From positions 160,001-224,000 of IMG/VR virus record IMGVR_UViG_3300028886_000036: DNA of 64,000 nt; one strand, 5' to 3'. Numbering within the stretch: position 1 is the stretch's first letter; each line of letters begins with the position of its first letter. A program made the translations under genes and the position numbers. Positions 25,796 through 51,412 of this stretch are shown one piece after another. The notes beneath the pieces are model-generated. The model saw nothing but the letters and a program-made list of their open reading frames with translations, ran no database searches and had not been told where the DNA came from. The DNA is from a virus. Its lineage: Duplodnaviria; Caudoviricetes.

Positions 25796-26275
25796 TTAAG
25801 ATACCTTCTTTCCATATTGATTATCAGAAACTAAATACACTCCTAATACTTCATCCCAATGTTTTTCTTGATTTGGCTTAAATCTACCAAACTTAAATAT
25901 AATATTACTATATTTTTTATAGTTATCTAAATCACCAATCTCATCTTCATAATAACCTGTATATATTACAAAGTCATCATTACAACCTTTATCTCTAAAA
26001 TACTCTATCAAACTAATAACTTCATCTTCTTGTAAAATTGGTTCTAATCCACCAATCACTATAGCAGAAGTAATAGGATTATTAATGTATCTCCTATATA
26101 TTTGTTCATTTGATAACTCATGCATTTTAGAGTTGTGAAGCTGGTAATTCTGACAGACTTCACGAGAAATACCAGCTTCATCACAACATTTCCAATTACA
26201 ATAGCAAGTTCCAATAAACATGGAAGGCTTCTTGTAATTGACAAAATCTTCATCTTTTAGATTTGAGATTCTCAA
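25796..26275 (-). CDS. nrdG: anaerobic ribonucleotide reductase activating protein
   Basis: Cys cluster CYCNWKCC, GGLEP, IYTGY, KFGRF...SDNQ; directly downstream of nrdD. Confidence 0.85.
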   Translation of the reverse strand: MRISNLKDEDFVNYKKPSMFIGTCYCNWKCCDEAGISREVCQNYQLHNSKMHELSNEQIYRRYINNPITSAIVIGGLEPILQEDEVISLIEYFRDKGCNDDFVIYTGYYEDEIGDLDNYKKYSNIIFKFGRFKPNQEKHWDEVLGVYLVSDNQYGKKVS

Positions 26276-29200
26276 AAGAGTTCTCCTTTTTGATCAATTT
26301 CATACCAATCTCTTAAAGCAAACTCTGCTTTACGTTCTTTAGAATAGGACTTCTCTGGAGTGAGGAATCCTACAATTCTCTGCCAAGTAGTAGCAACTGG
26401 CTCGCCACAGATTGGGCAGGTTTTACCAAAGAACGAATGATTATTTTTGCAAGTGCTAATTCTAACACAGAAAGCAAAGTAATTAACTCCTTGATCAGCA
26501 ATATAATTAAGAAGATTCCATGCTGTATCAAAATTAGTTAAAGGAGCATCCAAATTTACATGTGCTATAGAACCGCCTGAACATGCTCTATCAAGTTCTG
26601 CACTAATTCTAATCTTTTCATTAAGTGTAGTTTTTACTCCCAAAGGAATCCACTGATTCCCATACAACGGAAGCTCATAAGCTTCTTCTGGGAAGAACAT
26701 CTGATCTTTCTGCATAAGAACAGCAGCAGCTCTTTCTCCAGGGATCTGCTCTATATTAATCATATAATCTTTATCTTTAGCAAACTCTTCTTTAGTATCG
26801 GTAAGGCATTTAAGAAGATCTTTAGCAAACTGAAGTCCTTCATCAGTATAGAAGGTATTACCAAACTCATCCTGATAAGTAAACCCAAATTTTTGGACAG
26901 CTTCATAGATTCCAATAATACCGATTGTATTATACTGAGATTCCATATGAAGCGCACCACAAGTATAGTTTGGAAGTAATCCTTTTTCGATGTTTCTTTT
27001 AATAATGTGCCTAATCACATCAAGGGTTTCACAGCAAAGGATTGTCCTTTCTTTAAGTGATTTAAAGTACTCTTCTTTAGTAGAAGACTCATAGGCAATT
27101 CTTGCAAGATTGATAGTGTTAACTTTGATAGAACCAACTTCTAGAGCAGTTCCTCCGATTGAGTTAAAATACCCAATTTTTTCTACATTAGATACCAATC
27201 TACAATTATGGGTTATAACTCCATTAGGAAGAGTAAAGTATGGTTCATCTTCATTTTCCATTTCAAAGCAGTATACAAAGTCATCATCATAATCAATTTT
27301 TTCAATAGACTTAATCTTAAAGTAAATCGAATTGTTCTTCCAAACATATACATTCTTCTGTTTTCTTCTAATTGTTTCATACCATCTAATACAATAAACT
27401 GGGTAATTTCTGTTAAACTCTTCTTCTCTGATAACAACCATACCATCGCCAGTTCTATCAGAAACATCAATAATAGTATTCATACCAAGTGATGTAAAAA
27501 GAGCTTCCATTTCATAAATAAGCTTTTTCGAAGTTGAATAGATTCTATTAGAGTTACCACCATCAGTAGCGTAATACCCATCAACAATACCTTTTCTAAA
27601 CTCAATTGATTCAAACAAACAATCAAGATTAAGTTCCTTTTCATTGCAATAGTTACCAGATACATATTCTCTAATAAATTTAGCAACTTCATCATTTCTA
27701 ATTACTACAGGATATACATTGTTATAGATCTTGTTTAATGACATAATACTAACTACATCTTCTGGAAGATTATTAAGAGCTAAATTATACTTTTCTTCAT
27801 TAAGGCTTAAATTAACTGTAGTAGTATATGTATCCTTATGTTCATTATCCATAGATCCATCACCAAGATACATACCAATAAGGTATCCATCTTTATATGT
27901 ATAACCTTTATTTTGTTGCTGACCATTAAGTGCTTTAGTATTGAATTCAATATAATCTTCAGTGGTAAGTTTATCAGTACTAATATCTCCTCTAAGAGTT
28001 GGTGTAAGATGGTTATCTGTCATATATAATTCTTTATTGTTAGTAGTAACAACCTTATACATCTCTCTAGCAGGAAGTTTAATTAATTTACCATTTACCC
28101 AGTTACCATTATGGAATACTGTAAAGTTTCTTTTAGTTTCATTATATGGAGATTCAAATAATTCTTTAAAGGTCATGTAATTAACTCCATCGGAAGATTT
28201 ACTTAAACAATACTGATCTCCACTAAAACAACAATTACTTAAACTAGTAACATCTTCTGAAATATAAAAGTTACTATCATTCCATTTCATATTGTGTTTG
28301 CAGCACCATCTAGCAAAATCCTCATCTGCAAACTTACCACCAATTCGAAGAAGTGCATAAGTAAGTACTGGGAAAGTCATCATATTTCTGTCCCTAATTT
28401 TACTTACCATTCTCATAAAACTCTTCTGATACTCCATAAACTCATCTTCATAATCAATCATATAGCTTCCATCTGGAAACTGCTTATCTCCAAACAAAGC
28501 TTCAAAGTATTCACTATCAAAAATAGTAATATTTGTAACCAATATGTTCACATTAAGACGCTACTCTTAATGTCTGCCTATTTAGACAGCTCTATGTCAC
28601 CATAGAGTGCGGACTATATCACGATCTTTATTACTAAAGACCCCATGCACTTCCACTACCAATCGCTTGTAGTGTACTCCCCAAAGGGATAGTCTCTGAA
28701 CCTTGTTTACATGTGTAAACCTTGGCTGCTAATTATCTCTATTAGAGATTTTTCAGCAATTCACATGGTTTGCTTTAACTATCACTAGTTAAAGGCGCAA
28801 ACAGTTTACGCAGACTGATTAACTCTCAGGAACGGCTGATTAAGCCTAAAAATTATTTCTTGGTGAGCTTGATCTCTGTAATATTCAGGACTCTTAATAT
28901 AATATCCATTCTCACAATCTTTCTTCCAAAAATAGAACGAATATATTAAGAAATTTGGCAAACCGCAAGCTCCTGAAGATCTGTTTGACATGAAACTAAC
29001 AAACTCACCAACAAAGTCTGTAAATGTACTTAAATGCTTTGGAGGTTGAGCATTAAAGTTATTTTGTATAAAGTAAAGACCTTTCTCAGCTAAGTCTTTT
29101 AAATCATAAGCAAAACAGTACGGTAAGAAACTTGTACTGTAAGCATCATGGTTATAGAAGTGTCCATCCCATTCATTCTTTAACCAATCTTTAGCGACTT

Positions 29201-29510
29201 CTAATCCATACTTCTTTTTAAGTTCATAGAAGATCTTGTTAAAAGATTCCAGCTTCAATTCTGGCTTTCGCATCTCTGTCATAAGAGAGCAAATATCTTT
29301 AGTACTAGCATTTGCATTACCATCAATTGACGCATCAGCCGTAGTACTATTCTTATCAATAAAGTTATCAATAAACTCTGTGTTGTTTAACTGACTATTG
29401 CTTAATCCATTCAATATAGTAAGTTTATTACCATATTCTTTCTTAAGCGCTTTCAAGCATTCAACAAAATCTTCATCAAGCTTAATTGAAATATCTAAGT
29501 ATCCAGCCAT
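26272..29510 (-). CDS. nrdD: class III anaerobic ribonucleotide reductase; exon 1 28808..29510 + exon 2 26272..28538; contains an intein
   Basis: Splicing restores QSAFTNITIFD; intein removal restores SNCCRL; glycyl-radical motif RIVGF; C-terminal Zn site; mature protein ~647 aa. Confidence 0.93.
27205..28230 (-). mobile_element. intein with LAGLIDADG homing endonuclease (342 aa)
   Basis: Starts CFSGD and ends VITHN before Cys+1; block B TDNH; LAGLIDADG motifs LIGMYLGDG and IVDGYYATDG. Confidence 0.93.
28539..28807 (-). mobile_element. group I self-splicing intron (269 nt, no ORF) in nrdD
   Basis: 5' exon ends in U with P1 GCGU/GCGC (U.G pair); P GAAUUGCUG, Q UUAGCAGC, R UCAGAGACUA, S GAUAUAGUCC; terminal G; splicing restores the frame. 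Confidence 0.93.
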
Positions 29511-47582: not shown

Positions 47583-47610
47583 TTGACAAGTAATTTTTAT
47601 ATAGTATAAT
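47583..47610 (+). promoter_or_regulatory. sigma70 promoter for the sRNA/tRNA region
   Basis: TTGACA-N16-TATAAT. Confidence 0.65.
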
Positions 47611-47615
47611 ATCAC

Positions 47616-47800
47616 CTAGAAATGCTAGTTTCCCTCCTCCCTGCCGTGTTGCGCGTCTTTGTTATACACTCCTTTACATTGTGGAGATCTTTTCTAGCAT
47701 TTCTGCTCCACTCCTTATTATGTTTTAATACAGAACTATCTATAGCTAACTTAGTTAGAACCTCTAAAGAGAAGGTCTTGGTAGTTCTACTTCTTACTTT
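47616..47800 (+). ncRNA. candidate sRNA rich in anti-Shine-Dalgarno motifs
   Basis: Stem AGAAATGCTAG/CTAGCATTTCT enclosing CCCTCCTCCC and ACTCCTTT, followed by CTCCACTCCTT. Confidence 0.4.
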
Positions 47801-47810
47801 CTAACATCGC

Positions 47811-47904
47811 GGAGACGTGGGTGAGTAGTCGAAACCACTAGTCTTGAAAACTAGTATACCGTAAATTCGGTATCCCGAGTGCAAATCTTTCGGCGTCTCC
47901 GCCA
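47811..47904 (+). tRNA. tRNA-Ser(TGA)
   Basis: Acceptor GGAGACG/CGTCTCC, anticodon loop CTTGAAA, long variable arm, CCA end; atypical T-arm. Confidence 0.85.
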
Positions 47905-47953: not shown

Positions 47954-48607
47954 ATGACTGAAACTATGACTGTGCATCAGGCACTTTGTGAAGTAAAGCT
48001 TGCTGATAAGAAGATTAATCAAATGTTTTCTAATGCTAATGATTTTACTGTGATTGGAGTTAATACTAATCCTGATAGTGCTAAAGCGAATGTTAAGGGT
48101 ATTGATCTTGATACCTTTATTAATAATGCTAAATCCAGCTATCAGAAGATTAAAGATATCTTCAATAGAGTAGATGCGATTAAAGCAGCTATTAGTAAAT
48201 CTAATGCAGCTACTATGATTAATGTTGGTGGTAAAACTATGTCTGTTGCAGAAGCTATTTATCAGATGAAGTATGGTATTAAGAATAAGAAGAATCTGAT
48301 TGCAAATCTGCAAAAGCAAAGTAGCTATGTCCAGATTTCTTTTAGAACTGCTGAAATGGCAGTTGAAGAAAAGCTTGAAAAAAGTGTAATTGCTCTCTTT
48401 GGAAAAGATAACATTAAAGCTAATACTGATGAAGTACTTGATTATAAAGACAAGTACAAGAAAAAGTATATGCCGGTTATTGTGGATCCTATCAATATTC
48501 AAGACGCTATTAATAAACTCTCTGAAGAGATTGATCAGTTTGAAATGAATGTTGATAGTGCTATTCAGGTTAGCAATGCTACTACTATGATTACTATTGA
48601 ATATTAG
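47954..48607 (+). CDS. coiled-coil protein upstream of the large ncRNA
   Basis: 217 aa; internal repeat MTVHQAL / MSVAEAI; ends VDSAIQVSNATTMITIEY. Confidence 0.85.
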   Translation: MTETMTVHQALCEVKLADKKINQMFSNANDFTVIGVNTNPDSAKANVKGIDLDTFINNAKSSYQKIKDIFNRVDAIKAAISKSNAATMINVGGKTMSVAEAIYQMKYGIKNKKNLIANLQKQSSYVQISFRTAEMAVEEKLEKSVIALFGKDNIKANTDEVLDYKDKYKKKYMPVIVDPINIQDAINKLSEEIDQFEMNVDSAIQVSNATTMITIEY

Positions 48608-48621
48608 GAGTTGTAATAGCT

Positions 48622-48756
48622 ATGGTTGATCCTAATACTGTTACTATTATTATTGGCTTTCTTTCTCTGGCTTGGTACATTGTTATTCTGTGCAATGTGA
48701 TTGGAATTAACAAATCTCTTAAAAAGTTAGTAGAATTGGAACTTACCAATAAGTAA
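48622..48756 (+). CDS. single-TM peptide (44 aa)
   Basis: MVDPNTVTIIIGFLSLAWYIVILC...; RBS AGGAG. Confidence 0.6.
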   Translation: MVDPNTVTIIIGFLSLAWYIVILCNVIGINKSLKKLVELELTNK

Positions 48757-48772
48757 AACTTTGAACAAATAT

Positions 48773-49277
48773 TGGATATCTATCGAAAGTTCTAAACACT
48801 GAATTTCATAAGTTTTAGTGGGTTTCTTATGTAAAAGAAAAAACCCACTCCACTTATAAAGAATAACGACTGTATTGCACGCACAGCCTAAATTCTTCTT
48901 TATTTGCCTACCTGAACTGGGCTAGATAAAGAGATAAATGATCTTGTGAATCATTTACCCTATAAAATCGCTATGCTGATGAAGCCTAATTCAGCGGGAT
49001 TGAGTAGATGATTACTGATTATTCTTTATTAAGTACTGTTTAATTAGTAGTTAGAGTTCAAATAATAGGTGTGACTCGGCCTAACTTATCTAATACTTAG
49101 TAGAGTATGGATTGGATTTATAAGTGATACCTCTGAGGAAGTATCCTCCAGTCTTACAGTAGAATGTAAACATGCTCGCATTAATAAGCTAATGATTGAT
49201 GAAATCTAGGATAACAGGTCATAACTACTTGAATTCAGTTTTGAGTTTGAACAGACCTCCTAGCTGATAGGTATCCA
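48773..49277 (+). ncRNA. large structured ncRNA candidate (~505 nt) with pseudoknots
   Basis: 12-bp terminal helix TGGATATCTATC/GATAGGTATCCA, many internal helices, two pseudoknots, no ORF. Confidence 0.75.
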
Positions 49278-49289
49278 CTATTTATACAC

Positions 49290-49317
49290 TTGACAGATAA
49301 AAATCTTATGCTATAAT
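49290..49317 (+). promoter_or_regulatory. sigma70 promoter, extended -10
   Basis: TTGACA-N16-TATAAT with TG. Confidence 0.65.
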
Positions 49318-49348
49318 AAACTCATCCTAAATGAAAGAGGTAATGATT

Positions 49349-49489
49349 ATGGATCAGTTCATTAAGAAGCTTGAGAATGGTAATATTGAAAGAACTACTT
49401 TGAAATCATTTGTAGCTAAACTACAGAGACAAATCGAAGTTCAGAATGAAAACAAAGTAGTATTTGGTGATAACTTTAGGATGATGTAA
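49349..49489 (+). CDS. small hypothetical protein (46 aa)
   Basis: MDQFIKKLENG...; RBS GAGGT. Confidence 0.5.
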   Translation: MDQFIKKLENGNIERTTLKSFVAKLQRQIEVQNENKVVFGDNFRMM

Positions 49490-49494
49490 CTAAT

Positions 49495-49686
49495 ATGAAT
49501 ACAAATCTCTATCCTAGTAAAGATGAAGAACTTGCAGTACAAGTTAAATTTAAATTTTATGATGATTTAGTAAAGGATTCTGCTTGGATGCAGTTCGATG
49601 AATCTAATAATTGCTATGTATTTCATACTATGGCTTTTGGATGGATTAAGGAATCTGATGTGATTTCTTGGAAGATTCTACAGTAA
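49495..49686 (+). CDS. small hypothetical protein
   Basis: 63-aa ORF. Confidence 0.6.
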   Translation: MNTNLYPSKDEELAVQVKFKFYDDLVKDSAWMQFDESNNCYVFHTMAFGWIKESDVISWKILQ

Positions 49687-49688
49687 TT

Positions 49689-49806
49689 TAATCTGTAGTT
49701 CAAATAGCAGAACATCACTGAGTAGTTTTATCTATGTATACTCCATGGGTATAATTAGGATAAAATGAAAGCTGAAGATGTTAAGTGTAAGTCTTAACCG
49801 GATTAA
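49689..49806 (+). ncRNA. tRNA-like RNA with extended anticodon-position arm
   Basis: Acceptor TAATCTG/CGGATTA; D-arm GTTC-AAATAGCA-GAAC; T-arm GTTAAG-TGTAAGT-CTTAAC; ~60-nt hairpin in place of the anticodon arm. Confidence 0.5.
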
Positions 49807-50010: not shown

Positions 50011-50408
50011 CATTTGCCTAAATCAGTGCTTAGGACTGAGAATCATATAAAGGCTGATCTCTATTAACAAGAGCAATTATCATTGTATAAAAGATTCTCA
50101 AAACCCTTGATGTGAAAGAGGAGAAAGGGTGTTAGTACATATATCATCCTCATATCGTTTTGAAAGTACTAAACTACTTATAAATCACACATAGTATATA
50201 CAAGTGTGAAGGTAATTCAGAATTGAGTTACTTTGAAAAGATGGCTTTAGTCTGTTAATTCTGTATATACTAACAGACCTAATCTTAGGGTCTTGGTAGA
50301 TTATAATAAGATGTCAGTATGTAATTGACAAAAGACGAGAGATCTGATATAATCCCTGGTGTAAGGTTTTCAGAATCTAGCTTTTTGAAGATCTACCATT
50401 TAGATATG
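50011..50408 (+). ncRNA. second large structured ncRNA candidate (~400 nt)
   Basis: ORF-free; at least seven successive helices plus possible loop-loop pairing and a closing stem. Confidence 0.55.
50325..50353 (+). promoter_or_regulatory. consensus extended sigma70 promoter
   Basis: TTGACA-N17-TATAAT with TG, upstream of the endonuclease gene. Confidence 0.65.
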
Positions 50409-50491: not shown

Positions 50492-51412
50492 ATGATTTCA
50501 CATAAAAAGGTTGGAACTATTGGTGAAGCTAAAACTTTAGCTAAATTATCCGAATATGGAATTGATTGCTATTTGCCTTTTAATGAAGATACTAAATCTG
50601 ATATTGTAGCAGATATTAATGGCACGTTAACAAGGATACAGATTAAAACATCTAATAGAATTGTTCATAACTCGTTAATTGTTAAAATACAGCAATCCGG
50701 AAATCATGAAGCATATTTAGCGAAAGATGTTGATTATTTTGTTATTTATAATATGATTGACGATGAACTTTATATGATTACTCGTGTCGATACAGAAAAA
50801 TATGCTGGTAAGTCGGTTAGTATTAAAATAAGATATGATAGAGCTATATATAGGGATACCTTACAAAGTAAGGATATTTTAATTGACGATGTGCTGACTA
50901 GAGATTTAAAGGTAGCTAAAATAATATCTGAAAACTGCTCAGACACCACCAAGATCTCAGAGGCAGATTCAGCTTTAAGAAAAAAATCTAAAAAGCCTTC
51001 TAAGGACGCAATGGTAGATTTATTAAAAGAGTATAAAATAAGTGAGATAGCAGACATTTTTAATGTAACAGGTCAAACTATAAGAAAATGGTGCGCTGAA
51101 TTAGGCATTGAAATTTCTGAGTATACGCGTGAATGTTTGGTTGAAAAAACTTGTGCGTTATGCGGTAAAAAATTTATGACTAAAGATAAGTCTAGAAAAT
51201 TTTGTTCTAAAGAATGTTTAGACAATAGAGGATTAGTTAAAGTTGATTTAAATGATGTAATTAAAATGCATAAAGCTGGTAGTTCTATGAGAGAAATTGG
51301 AAGAAAATACGGGGTCCATCATAAAATGATTTCTAAGTTTTTGAAAAAATTTGATGAAAACCCAAGTTATATAAAATTTGCTACAGAAATTGAAGACGTT
51401 AAACAAGAGTAG
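50492..51412 (+). CDS. free-standing PD-(D/E)XK homing-type endonuclease with HTH and Zn-finger modules
   Basis: GTIGE...DIV...RIQIK; two HTHs (IADIFNVTGQTIRKW, IGRKYGVHHKMISK); CALC...CSKEC; embedded in the tRNA cluster. Confidence 0.8.
   Translation: MISHKKVGTIGEAKTLAKLSEYGIDCYLPFNEDTKSDIVADINGTLTRIQIKTSNRIVHNSLIVKIQQSGNHEAYLAKDVDYFVIYNMIDDELYMITRVDTEKYAGKSVSIKIRYDRAIYRDTLQSKDILIDDVLTRDLKVAKIISENCSDTTKISEADSALRKKSKKPSKDAMVDLLKEYKISEIADIFNVTGQTIRKWCAELGIEISEYTRECLVEKTCALCGKKFMTKDKSRKFCSKECLDNRGLVKVDLNDVIKMHKAGSSMREIGRKYGVHHKMISKFLKKFDENPSYIKFATEIEDVKQE

Follow-up and report, generated by a model that had tools for sequence, protein, structure and literature searches.

A 505-nt pseudoknotted phage RNA downstream of a phrog_1491-family gene: a divergent relative of RAGATH-27

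Among the described RNAs with which the element considered here, a 505-nt non-coding RNA in the genome of a tailed phage (Caudoviricetes), may be compared are ROOL and GOLLD, which are large and pseudoknotted, are of unknown function, occur in phages and prophages and are often found beside tRNAs (PMC5737381). ROOL and GOLLD form multimeric cages (bioRxiv 10.1101/2024.12.08.627333). A second point of reference is the Rfam family RAGATH-27 (RF03100), on which the main text of the 2017 survey that introduced ROOL (PMC5737381) is silent. The element lies at the far end of a tRNA-Ser and protein gene unit in a 64,000-nt stretch of the IMG/VR virus record IMGVR_UViG_3300028886_000036 (this whole stretch, bases 160001-224000 of the 275,466-bp record, which is complete according to CheckV, is what is meant below by the window, and positions are counted within it unless another locus is named); the protein, of 217 aa, belongs to the phrog_1491 family.

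That positions 48773-49277 encode a stable, structured non-coding RNA of this phage family, probably a discrete one, can be taken as very likely, and on the combined evidence of covariance modelling, architecture and context the RNA is an enlarged, divergent member of a widespread family of phage RNAs, and not a one-off. The original prediction, made from the letters of the window and a list of their open reading frames (ORFs), had seen in it a large ornate RNA acting with its upstream protein, in what was proposed to be an undescribed ribonucleoprotein system that also took in a small membrane peptide. The genetic tie between RNA and protein emerges strengthened, both by covariation and by near-universal linkage, whereas two parts of the proposal have had to be given up: the RNA has a distant relative in RAGATH-27 and so cannot be called wholly undescribed, and the membrane peptide no longer forms part of the unit.

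Architecture and covariation of the 505-nt RNA

As predicted, the element contains no + strand ORF of 30 aa or more (the - strand has only two, of 30-31 aa). Folded as a single sequence it reaches -134.9 kcal/mol, against -106.5 kcal/mol for shuffles (z = -5.1), and none of 100 dinucleotide shuffles does as well. The 12-bp helix that had been proposed to close the element, here termed P1, is present in the sequence, as is the H-type pseudoknot that follows it, whose stem is formed by 48807-48812 with 48826-48831 and whose loop 48817-48825 pairs with 48841-48849. Towards the other end lies a conserved 3′ domain comprising two helices, Pa, in which 49206-49210 pair to 49259-49263, and Pb, in which 49216-49218 pair to 49256-49258, and a hairpin whose loop forms a long-range pseudoknot with the strand following P1. 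This last interaction, which had also been predicted, proves to be real and to covary, its exact strands being 48798-48805 with 49232-49239; in the clade to which this RNA belongs it is lengthened by the additional pairing of 48789-48797 with 49245-49252. (The clade consists of this RNA, L002/L145 and the metagenomic L229, with protein identities of 54-56% and three full-length members.)

Covariation among RNAs lying downstream of homologues of the 217-aa gene, which would be expected if the element were real, is found for P1, Pa, Pb and the pseudoknots alike. The test set comprised 28 diverse members, among them this RNA and those of a T5-like phage, Clostridioides phage phiCD211 and Bacillus phage QCM8, and their MAFFT alignment was left unfitted. 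Across P1 (12 bp), Pa (5 bp) and Pb (3 bp) taken together, 98.7% of cells hold standard pairs and double changes occur at 18 of the 20 pairs, a level that 0 of 500 shuffles reach, and if the partner strand is slid by 1-3 columns pairing falls to 35-53%. For P1 by itself the corresponding figures are 99.4% of cells paired and compensatory changes at all 12 pairs. A blind scan of the alignment for covarying diagonals brought out two more contacts, both between the strand following P1 and the interior of the 3′ domain, in which 82.6% of cells are paired, a level that falls to 31-43% on sliding and is reached by 0 of 500 shuffles, and in which double changes occur at all 11 pairs; since both contacts cross Pa and Pb, they are pseudoknots. 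Within the clade, P1 and both pseudoknot systems each use three sets of letters, i.e. the changes are compensatory there also. The H-type pseudoknot likewise recurs with other letters in relatives, from this phage through to the T5-like phage, evidence that comes from a per-sequence search and is thus less formal than the alignment test.

Two further helices fared less well. An 11-bp helix (48856-48866 with 49019-49029) and a competing 10-bp helix (48851-48860 with 49117-49126) had been proposed for the interior of the RNA; the strands are indeed complementary here, but in both clade relatives the columns in question hold gaps or mispairs, and neither helix appears in the RNAalifold consensus. 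Both were accordingly rejected as unsupported, and, being A/U-rich and not conserved, they may represent chance complementarity. Coordinates of all the features retained are collected in Table 1.

Table 1 Features of the locus, in window coordinates
Feature	Positions	Strand	Remarks
Perfect sigma-70-type promoter consensus	47583..47610	+	Hexamers match 12/12; likely start of unit
tRNA-Ser(UGA)	47811..47904	+	Directly upstream of 217-aa gene; ARAGORN, Rfam
217-aa helical protein, phrog_1491 family	47954..48607	+	E 3.4e-50
44-aa single-pass membrane peptide ORF	48622..48756	+	From translation
Closed non-coding RNA, whole element, 505 nt	48773..49277	+	
P1 closing helix, 5′ strand	48773..48784	+	Pairs with 49266-49277
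5′ joining strand	48785..48805	+	Conserved GAAA, then 48789-48805, pairing into 3′ domain
H-type pseudoknot	48807..48849	+	Two interlocked stems; region of weak RAGATH-27 match
Variable expansion region, hairpins	48850..48996	+	From alignments; helices with 3-sequence support only
Conserved block, then AGUA-rich track	48997..49161	+	In place of the YAAAG array of other members
Conserved 3′ domain	49172..49265	+	Pa, Pb, loop hairpin and invariant GCU preceding P1
P1 closing helix, 3′ strand	49266..49277	+	
Perfect sigma-70-type consensus with TG extension	49290..49317	+	Begins next unit; 3′ limit of RNA

Relation to RAGATH-27 and spread of the family

Rfam was scanned at gathering thresholds over the whole window, and at E-values up to 10 over 48500-49500. 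Neither scan gives a match to ROOL (RF03087), GOLLD (RF01998) or OLE, and the absence of RNase P, tmRNA and group I motifs noted in the original prediction holds good, no model of these families matching within 48773-49277; in the 1-kb stretch RAGATH-27 is the only notable row. Its score at 48772-48849 is 26.3 bits (E 0.4 in the 1-kb stretch, 0.026 genome-wide), well short of the curated gathering cut-off of 76.1. In the alignment, positions 1-86 of the model correspond to 48772-48849 with the hairpin kept, and columns that the model treats as “unpaired” agree strikingly. This is the best RF03100 hit in the entire 275-kb genome, just as the best hit in the genome of the 284-kb relative L002 falls at the homologous spot (20.4 bits), and both lie directly after the homologue of the 217-aa gene. 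The second-best hit in the present genome, outside the window at G000:148964-149037 (19.8 bits, E 0.41), is probably due to chance, because no second copy of the protein gene was found in this genome.

In three other loci (G001, L170 and L210) RAGATH-27 is found above threshold, at 92-95 bits, in each case directly after a gene for a homologous protein, and there each hit is the 5′ end of a longer closed RNA, of 370-390 nt. In G001, a 172-kb phage, the hit (95.2 bits) comes right after a 33%-identical homologue, and the 5′ end of the RNA pairs with a segment some 370 nt further on, immediately ahead of a tRNA-Gln. Of 16 family loci tested, just 2 attain the RAGATH-27 threshold, which implies that Rfam covers a fragment (the first 86 nt) of one subclade. 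What is catalogued as RAGATH-27, a model of 86 nt with one hairpin, is thus a piece of a far larger RNA, as the real unit runs to 290-505 nt and includes three pseudoknotted contacts, a closing helix and a 3′ domain, all of them lacking from the model. For the present RNA, the first ~80 nt align with RAGATH-27 end to end, the sequence blocks and the hairpin are common to both, and so is the gene context; by this alignment its 5′ part is a distant relative of RAGATH-27, and to that extent the RNA is not wholly undescribed. The full-length unit, on the other hand, is undescribed in the public sources searched, and the catalogued fragment is classed as a candidate sRNA with no function assigned; a literature search returned no text on RAGATH-27 or on this RNA in T5.

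Membership of the larger family can also be approached from the other end of the molecule. Like RF03100, the covariance model R1, which describes the 3′ domain and rests on 26 members, was made without this clade. Its highest-scoring site in the window is 49172-49265 (24.3 bits, E 0.0075, the E-values being rough because calibration was short), and it finds L002 at the expected place with 31.3 bits and L229 with 27.4, whereas the background does not exceed 14.6 bits. Among the marks of the uncatalogued family, the 12-bp terminal helix with its 3′ strand preceded by GCU, the 3′ domain, the long-range pseudoknot and a phrog_1491 gene upstream on the same strand are all found here; an array of YAAAG motifs with a 7-nt period is not.

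Linkage to the gene, which the proposal of a joint system calls for, turns out to be close to universal. When the protein was used to collect loci from viral and metagenomic sequences, the 3′-domain profile located the RNA downstream on the same strand in 147 of 160, the other 13 being mostly cut short or else divergent members recognised by eye; for loci in bacterial genomes (largely of gut Clostridia, with prophages or else binned phage contigs as the probable source) the figure is 16 of 18. A protein-alignment search of viral contigs gave 161 relatives, and in the 80 kept for inspection of the RNA a RAGATH-27-like 5′ end and the 12-bp closing helix recur, in many combinations of letters and with spans of 333-486 nt. 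In L002 the 54%-identical protein is followed directly by a homologous RNA of ~484 nt that shows compensatory changes. Searches by nucleotide sequence were of little help: querying the phage collection with the DNA of the locus gave no useful match, and exact-pattern scans of the viral contigs for 5′ motifs gave nearly all chance matches in coding DNA, L101 (G001) alone being real.

Proteins of the phrog_1491 family occur in 656 deposited phage genomes, and in a T5-like coliphage, phiCD211 and QCM8 an unannotated gap of 440-640 nt after the gene holds the RNA. The T5-type RNA is 90-100% identical across 441 phage records and is almost never annotated. An unannotated gene-RNA pair thus runs through T5 relatives and through phages of Clostridioides, Bacillus and gut anaerobes, with the practical consequence that its function should be testable by standard E. 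coli genetics. As a separate observation, tRNA arrays holding the gene-RNA pair also contain other orphan Rfam motifs, a RAGATH-36 (L196:897-1053, 132.8 bits) and a RAGATH-33 (L191:5367-5493, 121.8 bits).

The kinship with RAGATH-27 does raise the question of whether the RNA might be catalytic or mobile, that is to say a self-cleaving ribozyme, an intron-like element or the remnant of one, as it was their association with ribozyme-linked genes that led to the RAGATH motifs (PMC13346280 spells out the name), and as the window contains, in other places, a group I intron and a gene for a likely homing-type endonuclease. However, at E-values up to 10 the stretch gives no match to any ribozyme or intron family, no gene is interrupted, and in all hosts the RNA keeps its place after one particular gene. 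Nor did a cleavage-site signature come to light, none having been specifically modelled. This explanation is consequently regarded as very improbable.

Fixed and changeable parts, and the surrounding unit

At 505 nt this is the longest member of the family seen, the range being 292-505 nt. Typical members carry, between their variable region and the 3′ domain, 8-17 YAAAG motifs with a 7-nt period, AAAG being present above the level of shuffles. Here there are just three scattered YAAAG-like motifs, and across the clade 3-5, likewise scattered; it is AGUA that is enriched in the relatives, moderately in L145 (9 against 4.4 shuffled, 16/1000) and strongly in L229 (15 against 6.2, 0/1000), with spacings of 7 and 14 nt in both. 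The variable region that follows the H-type pseudoknot is expanded in the present RNA, but short or tRNA-bearing in other members. ARAGORN calls complete tRNA-like genes within that region at L150:3325-3398 (Tyr), L163:3310-3384 (Gly), L171:3314-3386 (Gly) and L224:3314-3385 (Ser); these embedded tRNAs lie between the H-type pseudoknot and the repeat array, and the region seems to be either an insertion hot spot or a carrier of tRNAs.

The junction between gene and RNA is similarly changeable. The 44-aa peptide encoded there has a 43-aa counterpart in the corresponding position of L228, which resembles it in its hydrophobic core and its basic tail, and yet the peptide is far more diverged than the neighbouring protein, which is 96% identical. 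In L002 and L229 no membrane peptide is found, and the RNA begins ~15-35 nt past the stop of the gene. Elsewhere other small ORFs occupy the junction (at ~3136-3700 in L172, L187 and the L175 group), with a lipoprotein-signal-like start in L187, a membrane-helix-like start in L172 and a soluble, acidic product in the L175 group, so that small and often membrane-directed ORFs recur at this point. Because the 44-aa peptide is absent from L002 and L229, and because other loci carry other ORFs, it is best viewed as an optional, clade-specific insert lying outside the conserved unit.

On the alignments available, then, the fixed parts of the system are P1, both pseudoknot systems and the 3′ domain, and the changeable ones are the variable region, the repeat motif and the inserted ORFs. 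It is in drawing this distinction that the present clade, the most divergent so far, has its particular value, as it separates indispensable from changeable parts in the way that the design of mutants and of a covariance model requires. What is new here comprises the large divergent clade itself, the switch of motif and the recognition of the peptide as an optional insert, besides the fact that the second long-range contact has been put to a formal test.

The order of elements along the + strand is a sigma-70-type promoter, tRNA-Ser(UGA), the 217-aa ORF, the 44-aa ORF, the RNA and a second promoter; the arrangement of a tRNA-Ser before the protein gene is common to L002 and to phiCD211 (from the annotation of the latter). 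Promoter-like sites in the region are no more numerous than in shuffles, so that a promoter function for the consensus upstream of the tRNA is presumptive. The interval between it and the tRNA-Ser (47616-47800, ~190 nt) contains a sole ORF, of 60 aa, and would form the 5′ part of the unit. At the other end, the expectations that no terminator would separate gene from RNA and that a new promoter would follow the RNA directly are both borne out, in that a search of the + strand from gene to RNA revealed no terminator-like site and a perfect sigma-70 consensus lies just beyond the RNA. A motif at 48761-48774, shared with L002 and L228, was considered as a phage promoter or processing signal and dropped, as it is not repeated in the window above chance.

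An arrangement of this kind might also suggest that the RNA is a cis-acting element of the operon, either a 3′ untranslated region that stabilises or autoregulates the upstream mRNA or a platform for the processing of tRNA precursors. The lack of a terminator fits such a role, as do the lack of any clear promoter of its own (the best candidate, at 48707-48736, scores 10/12, which is common in shuffles), its embedding among tRNAs and the presence of a tRNA inside the RNA in some members. Against this, a fold of 330-505 nt with three pseudoknots and a 12-bp terminal helix far exceeds known 3′ stabilisers, and the insertion of small ORFs between gene and RNA, with no loss of the RNA, speaks against tight coupling in cis to the 3′ end of the gene. 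A cis-acting role is therefore considered distinctly unlikely.

As to the wider setting, the window has a G+C content of ~31% and a strand switch near 44 kb, and ARAGORN and Rfam together place seven tRNA genes in it, from 47.8 to 55.9 kb, with the RNA sitting inside the array. Just before the tRNA-Gln of the array, at 49689-49805, is a tRNA-like stretch that ARAGORN does not call; a stretch that looks similar by eye (no formal alignment was made) at L002:5407-5500 is called as a tRNA with anticodon CUA, of the amber suppressor type, and another lies at L150:4751-4829, so that suppression or recoding of stop codons is possible in these phages. Between the tRNA-Asn and the endonuclease gene there is a second ORF-free stretch (50011-50408), which gives only weak results with the 3′-domain model and profile (12.9 bits at 50070-50130; E 0.5-0.8), and its kinship with the 505-nt RNA is not supported. 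The endonuclease gene, also within the array, is a 306-aa ORF (50492-51412, +) with PD-(D/E)XK nuclease and helix-turn-helix domains, its product being likely a homing-type endonuclease. The group I intron, the only one in the window, is at 28590-28817 on the - strand (89.6 bits), flanked by the - strand ORFs 26272-28551 and 28806-29510, and probably splits a single gene.

The partner protein and comparison with known systems

The 217-aa protein matches no Pfam or NCBIfam family. Two labels attached to it were examined and set aside: “tail fiber” (PHROG and some GenBank records), for which no support was found, and “DIP1984-like”, which neither Pfam nor NCBIfam reproduces. An AlphaFold model made with a 20-row alignment (predicted local confidence score, pLDDT, 79.6; predicted template-modelling score, pTM, 0.72) consists of a bundle of long helices with short beta hairpins; the best conserved parts of the protein are its N- and C-terminal segments, the conserved C-terminal tail being modelled at low confidence. 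A Foldseek search of the PDB with this model gave no match at E 0.001 or better, the best VIA-align match (Z 10, a syntaxin-like bundle) does not rise to a level at which matches between helical proteins become informative, and in the Atlas the neighbours are all hypothetical proteins, of phages and of Bacillota, apart from a weak DUF6847 row at TM 0.29. Modelling does support self-association: the predicted homodimer scores 0.58 against 0.32 for the best control, at least 89% of contacts are common to the runs, and the pLDDT of the partner is at least 81. Of 30 proteins solved as pairs 20 come up to the same mark, as does 1 of 23 solved as single chains; these counts are rough because a custom alignment was used.

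Taking these strands together, it is somewhat more likely than not that RNA and protein are partners in a ribonucleoprotein with dimers of the protein on the repeat track. In such a scheme the tRNA-Ser, the 217-aa gene, the peptide and the RNA would be co-transcribed from the promoter at 47583, and the RNA would then be trimmed to the P1 helix by host enzymes of tRNA or RNA processing. P1, the long-range pseudoknots and the H-type pseudoknot together lock a compact core, with the variable region and the repeat track lying between core elements, and dimers of the upstream helical protein would bind the track so displayed. What favours this reading is the near-universal synteny across phages of Proteobacteria and Firmicutes, together with a long, apparently unpaired, periodic track whose repeat motif changes in the very clade that has the most divergent protein.

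The alternative that has to be taken most seriously is that the RNA acts alone, in the manner of ROOL or GOLLD and with no dedicated protein, the upstream gene being merely co-regulated or its product a helper in folding or packaging. The context near tRNAs and in prophages is as for GOLLD and ROOL (PMC5737381), the compact pseudoknotted core is strongly conserved, and the protein is without a known RNA-binding fold. Weighing on the other side are the near-universal link to one protein family across distant phages, of a kind not reported for ROOL or GOLLD in the parts of PMC5737381 considered, the lack of any hit by their covariance models at E-values up to 10, and the long, apparently unpaired repeat track, which suggests a ligand that reads a repeated motif. 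An RNA acting alone is therefore thought rather unlikely, and a partnership of RNA and protein is the interpretation preferred here.

That interpretation, and the assignment to the family on which it builds, nevertheless have a number of points to contend with. Synteny of gene and RNA is by itself no proof of a complex, and the protein shows no recognisable RNA-binding fold, its best structural matches being generic helical bundles (Z 10). In the 505-nt RNA itself the enrichment of AGUA is marginal (7 against 3.5 shuffled, 44/1000). The 3′ strand of P1 was located by a search for complementarity; it does, however, always abut the invariant GCU, and the slid controls collapse. Finally, sequence-only nhmmer profiles built without this clade are not significant on the window (E 2.3 and 7.1), a failure that points to strong divergence of the clade and means that its membership rests on structure-aware models, architecture and context.

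As regards what such a particle might do, its constant position inside phage tRNA arrays, which is a matter of context only, suggests that it may subvert host RNA or translation early in infection, or else draw off tRNA-directed defences as a decoy; any such specific cellular role is at present speculative and improbable. The fullest version of the scheme envisages a hitherto unrecognised phage ribonucleoprotein, widespread within tRNA arrays from T5 to jumbo gut phages, in which dimers of a small helical protein read a periodic single-stranded track on a triple-pseudoknotted scaffold, motif and protein co-diverge (YAAAG to AGUA), and the whole acts early on host RNA or translation or serves as a decoy for defence nucleases directed at tRNA. 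This is put forward tentatively, as a picture that is, taken whole, less likely than not. The interest of the question lies in the fact that bacteria and phages have few large RNAs that are multiply pseudoknotted and have a protein partner of their own, and that several of these have proved to be new machines.

The comparison with known systems may be drawn as follows. Bacterial Y RNA (YrlA, RF02553) gives no Rfam match, and the partner protein matches no Pfam family, Ro/TROVE included. From ROOL and GOLLD the 505-nt RNA differs in that their models do not match it, and in that no obligate partner gene is reported for them in the parts of PMC5737381 considered.

RNAs that display repeats for binding by oligomeric proteins are well known, as in CsrB and RsmZ with CsrA, and in the (G/U)AG repeats of the trp leader with TRAP. 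These offer at most a functional analogy, the likeness consisting in many regularly spaced short motifs and a small self-associating protein encoded nearby; there is no relation of sequence or fold, and what is envisaged here is a knotted scaffold with a helical-bundle protein, the binding of which is putative. A further comparison is with the full-length phage family itself, with which this RNA has in common P1, the GAAA junction, the H-type and long-range pseudoknots, Pa, Pb, the GCU, the phrog_1491 gene and the tRNA array, and from whose other members it is set apart by its length (505 as against 292-486 nt), by AGUA in place of YAAAG heptads, by a longer long-range helix and by the ORF for a membrane peptide.

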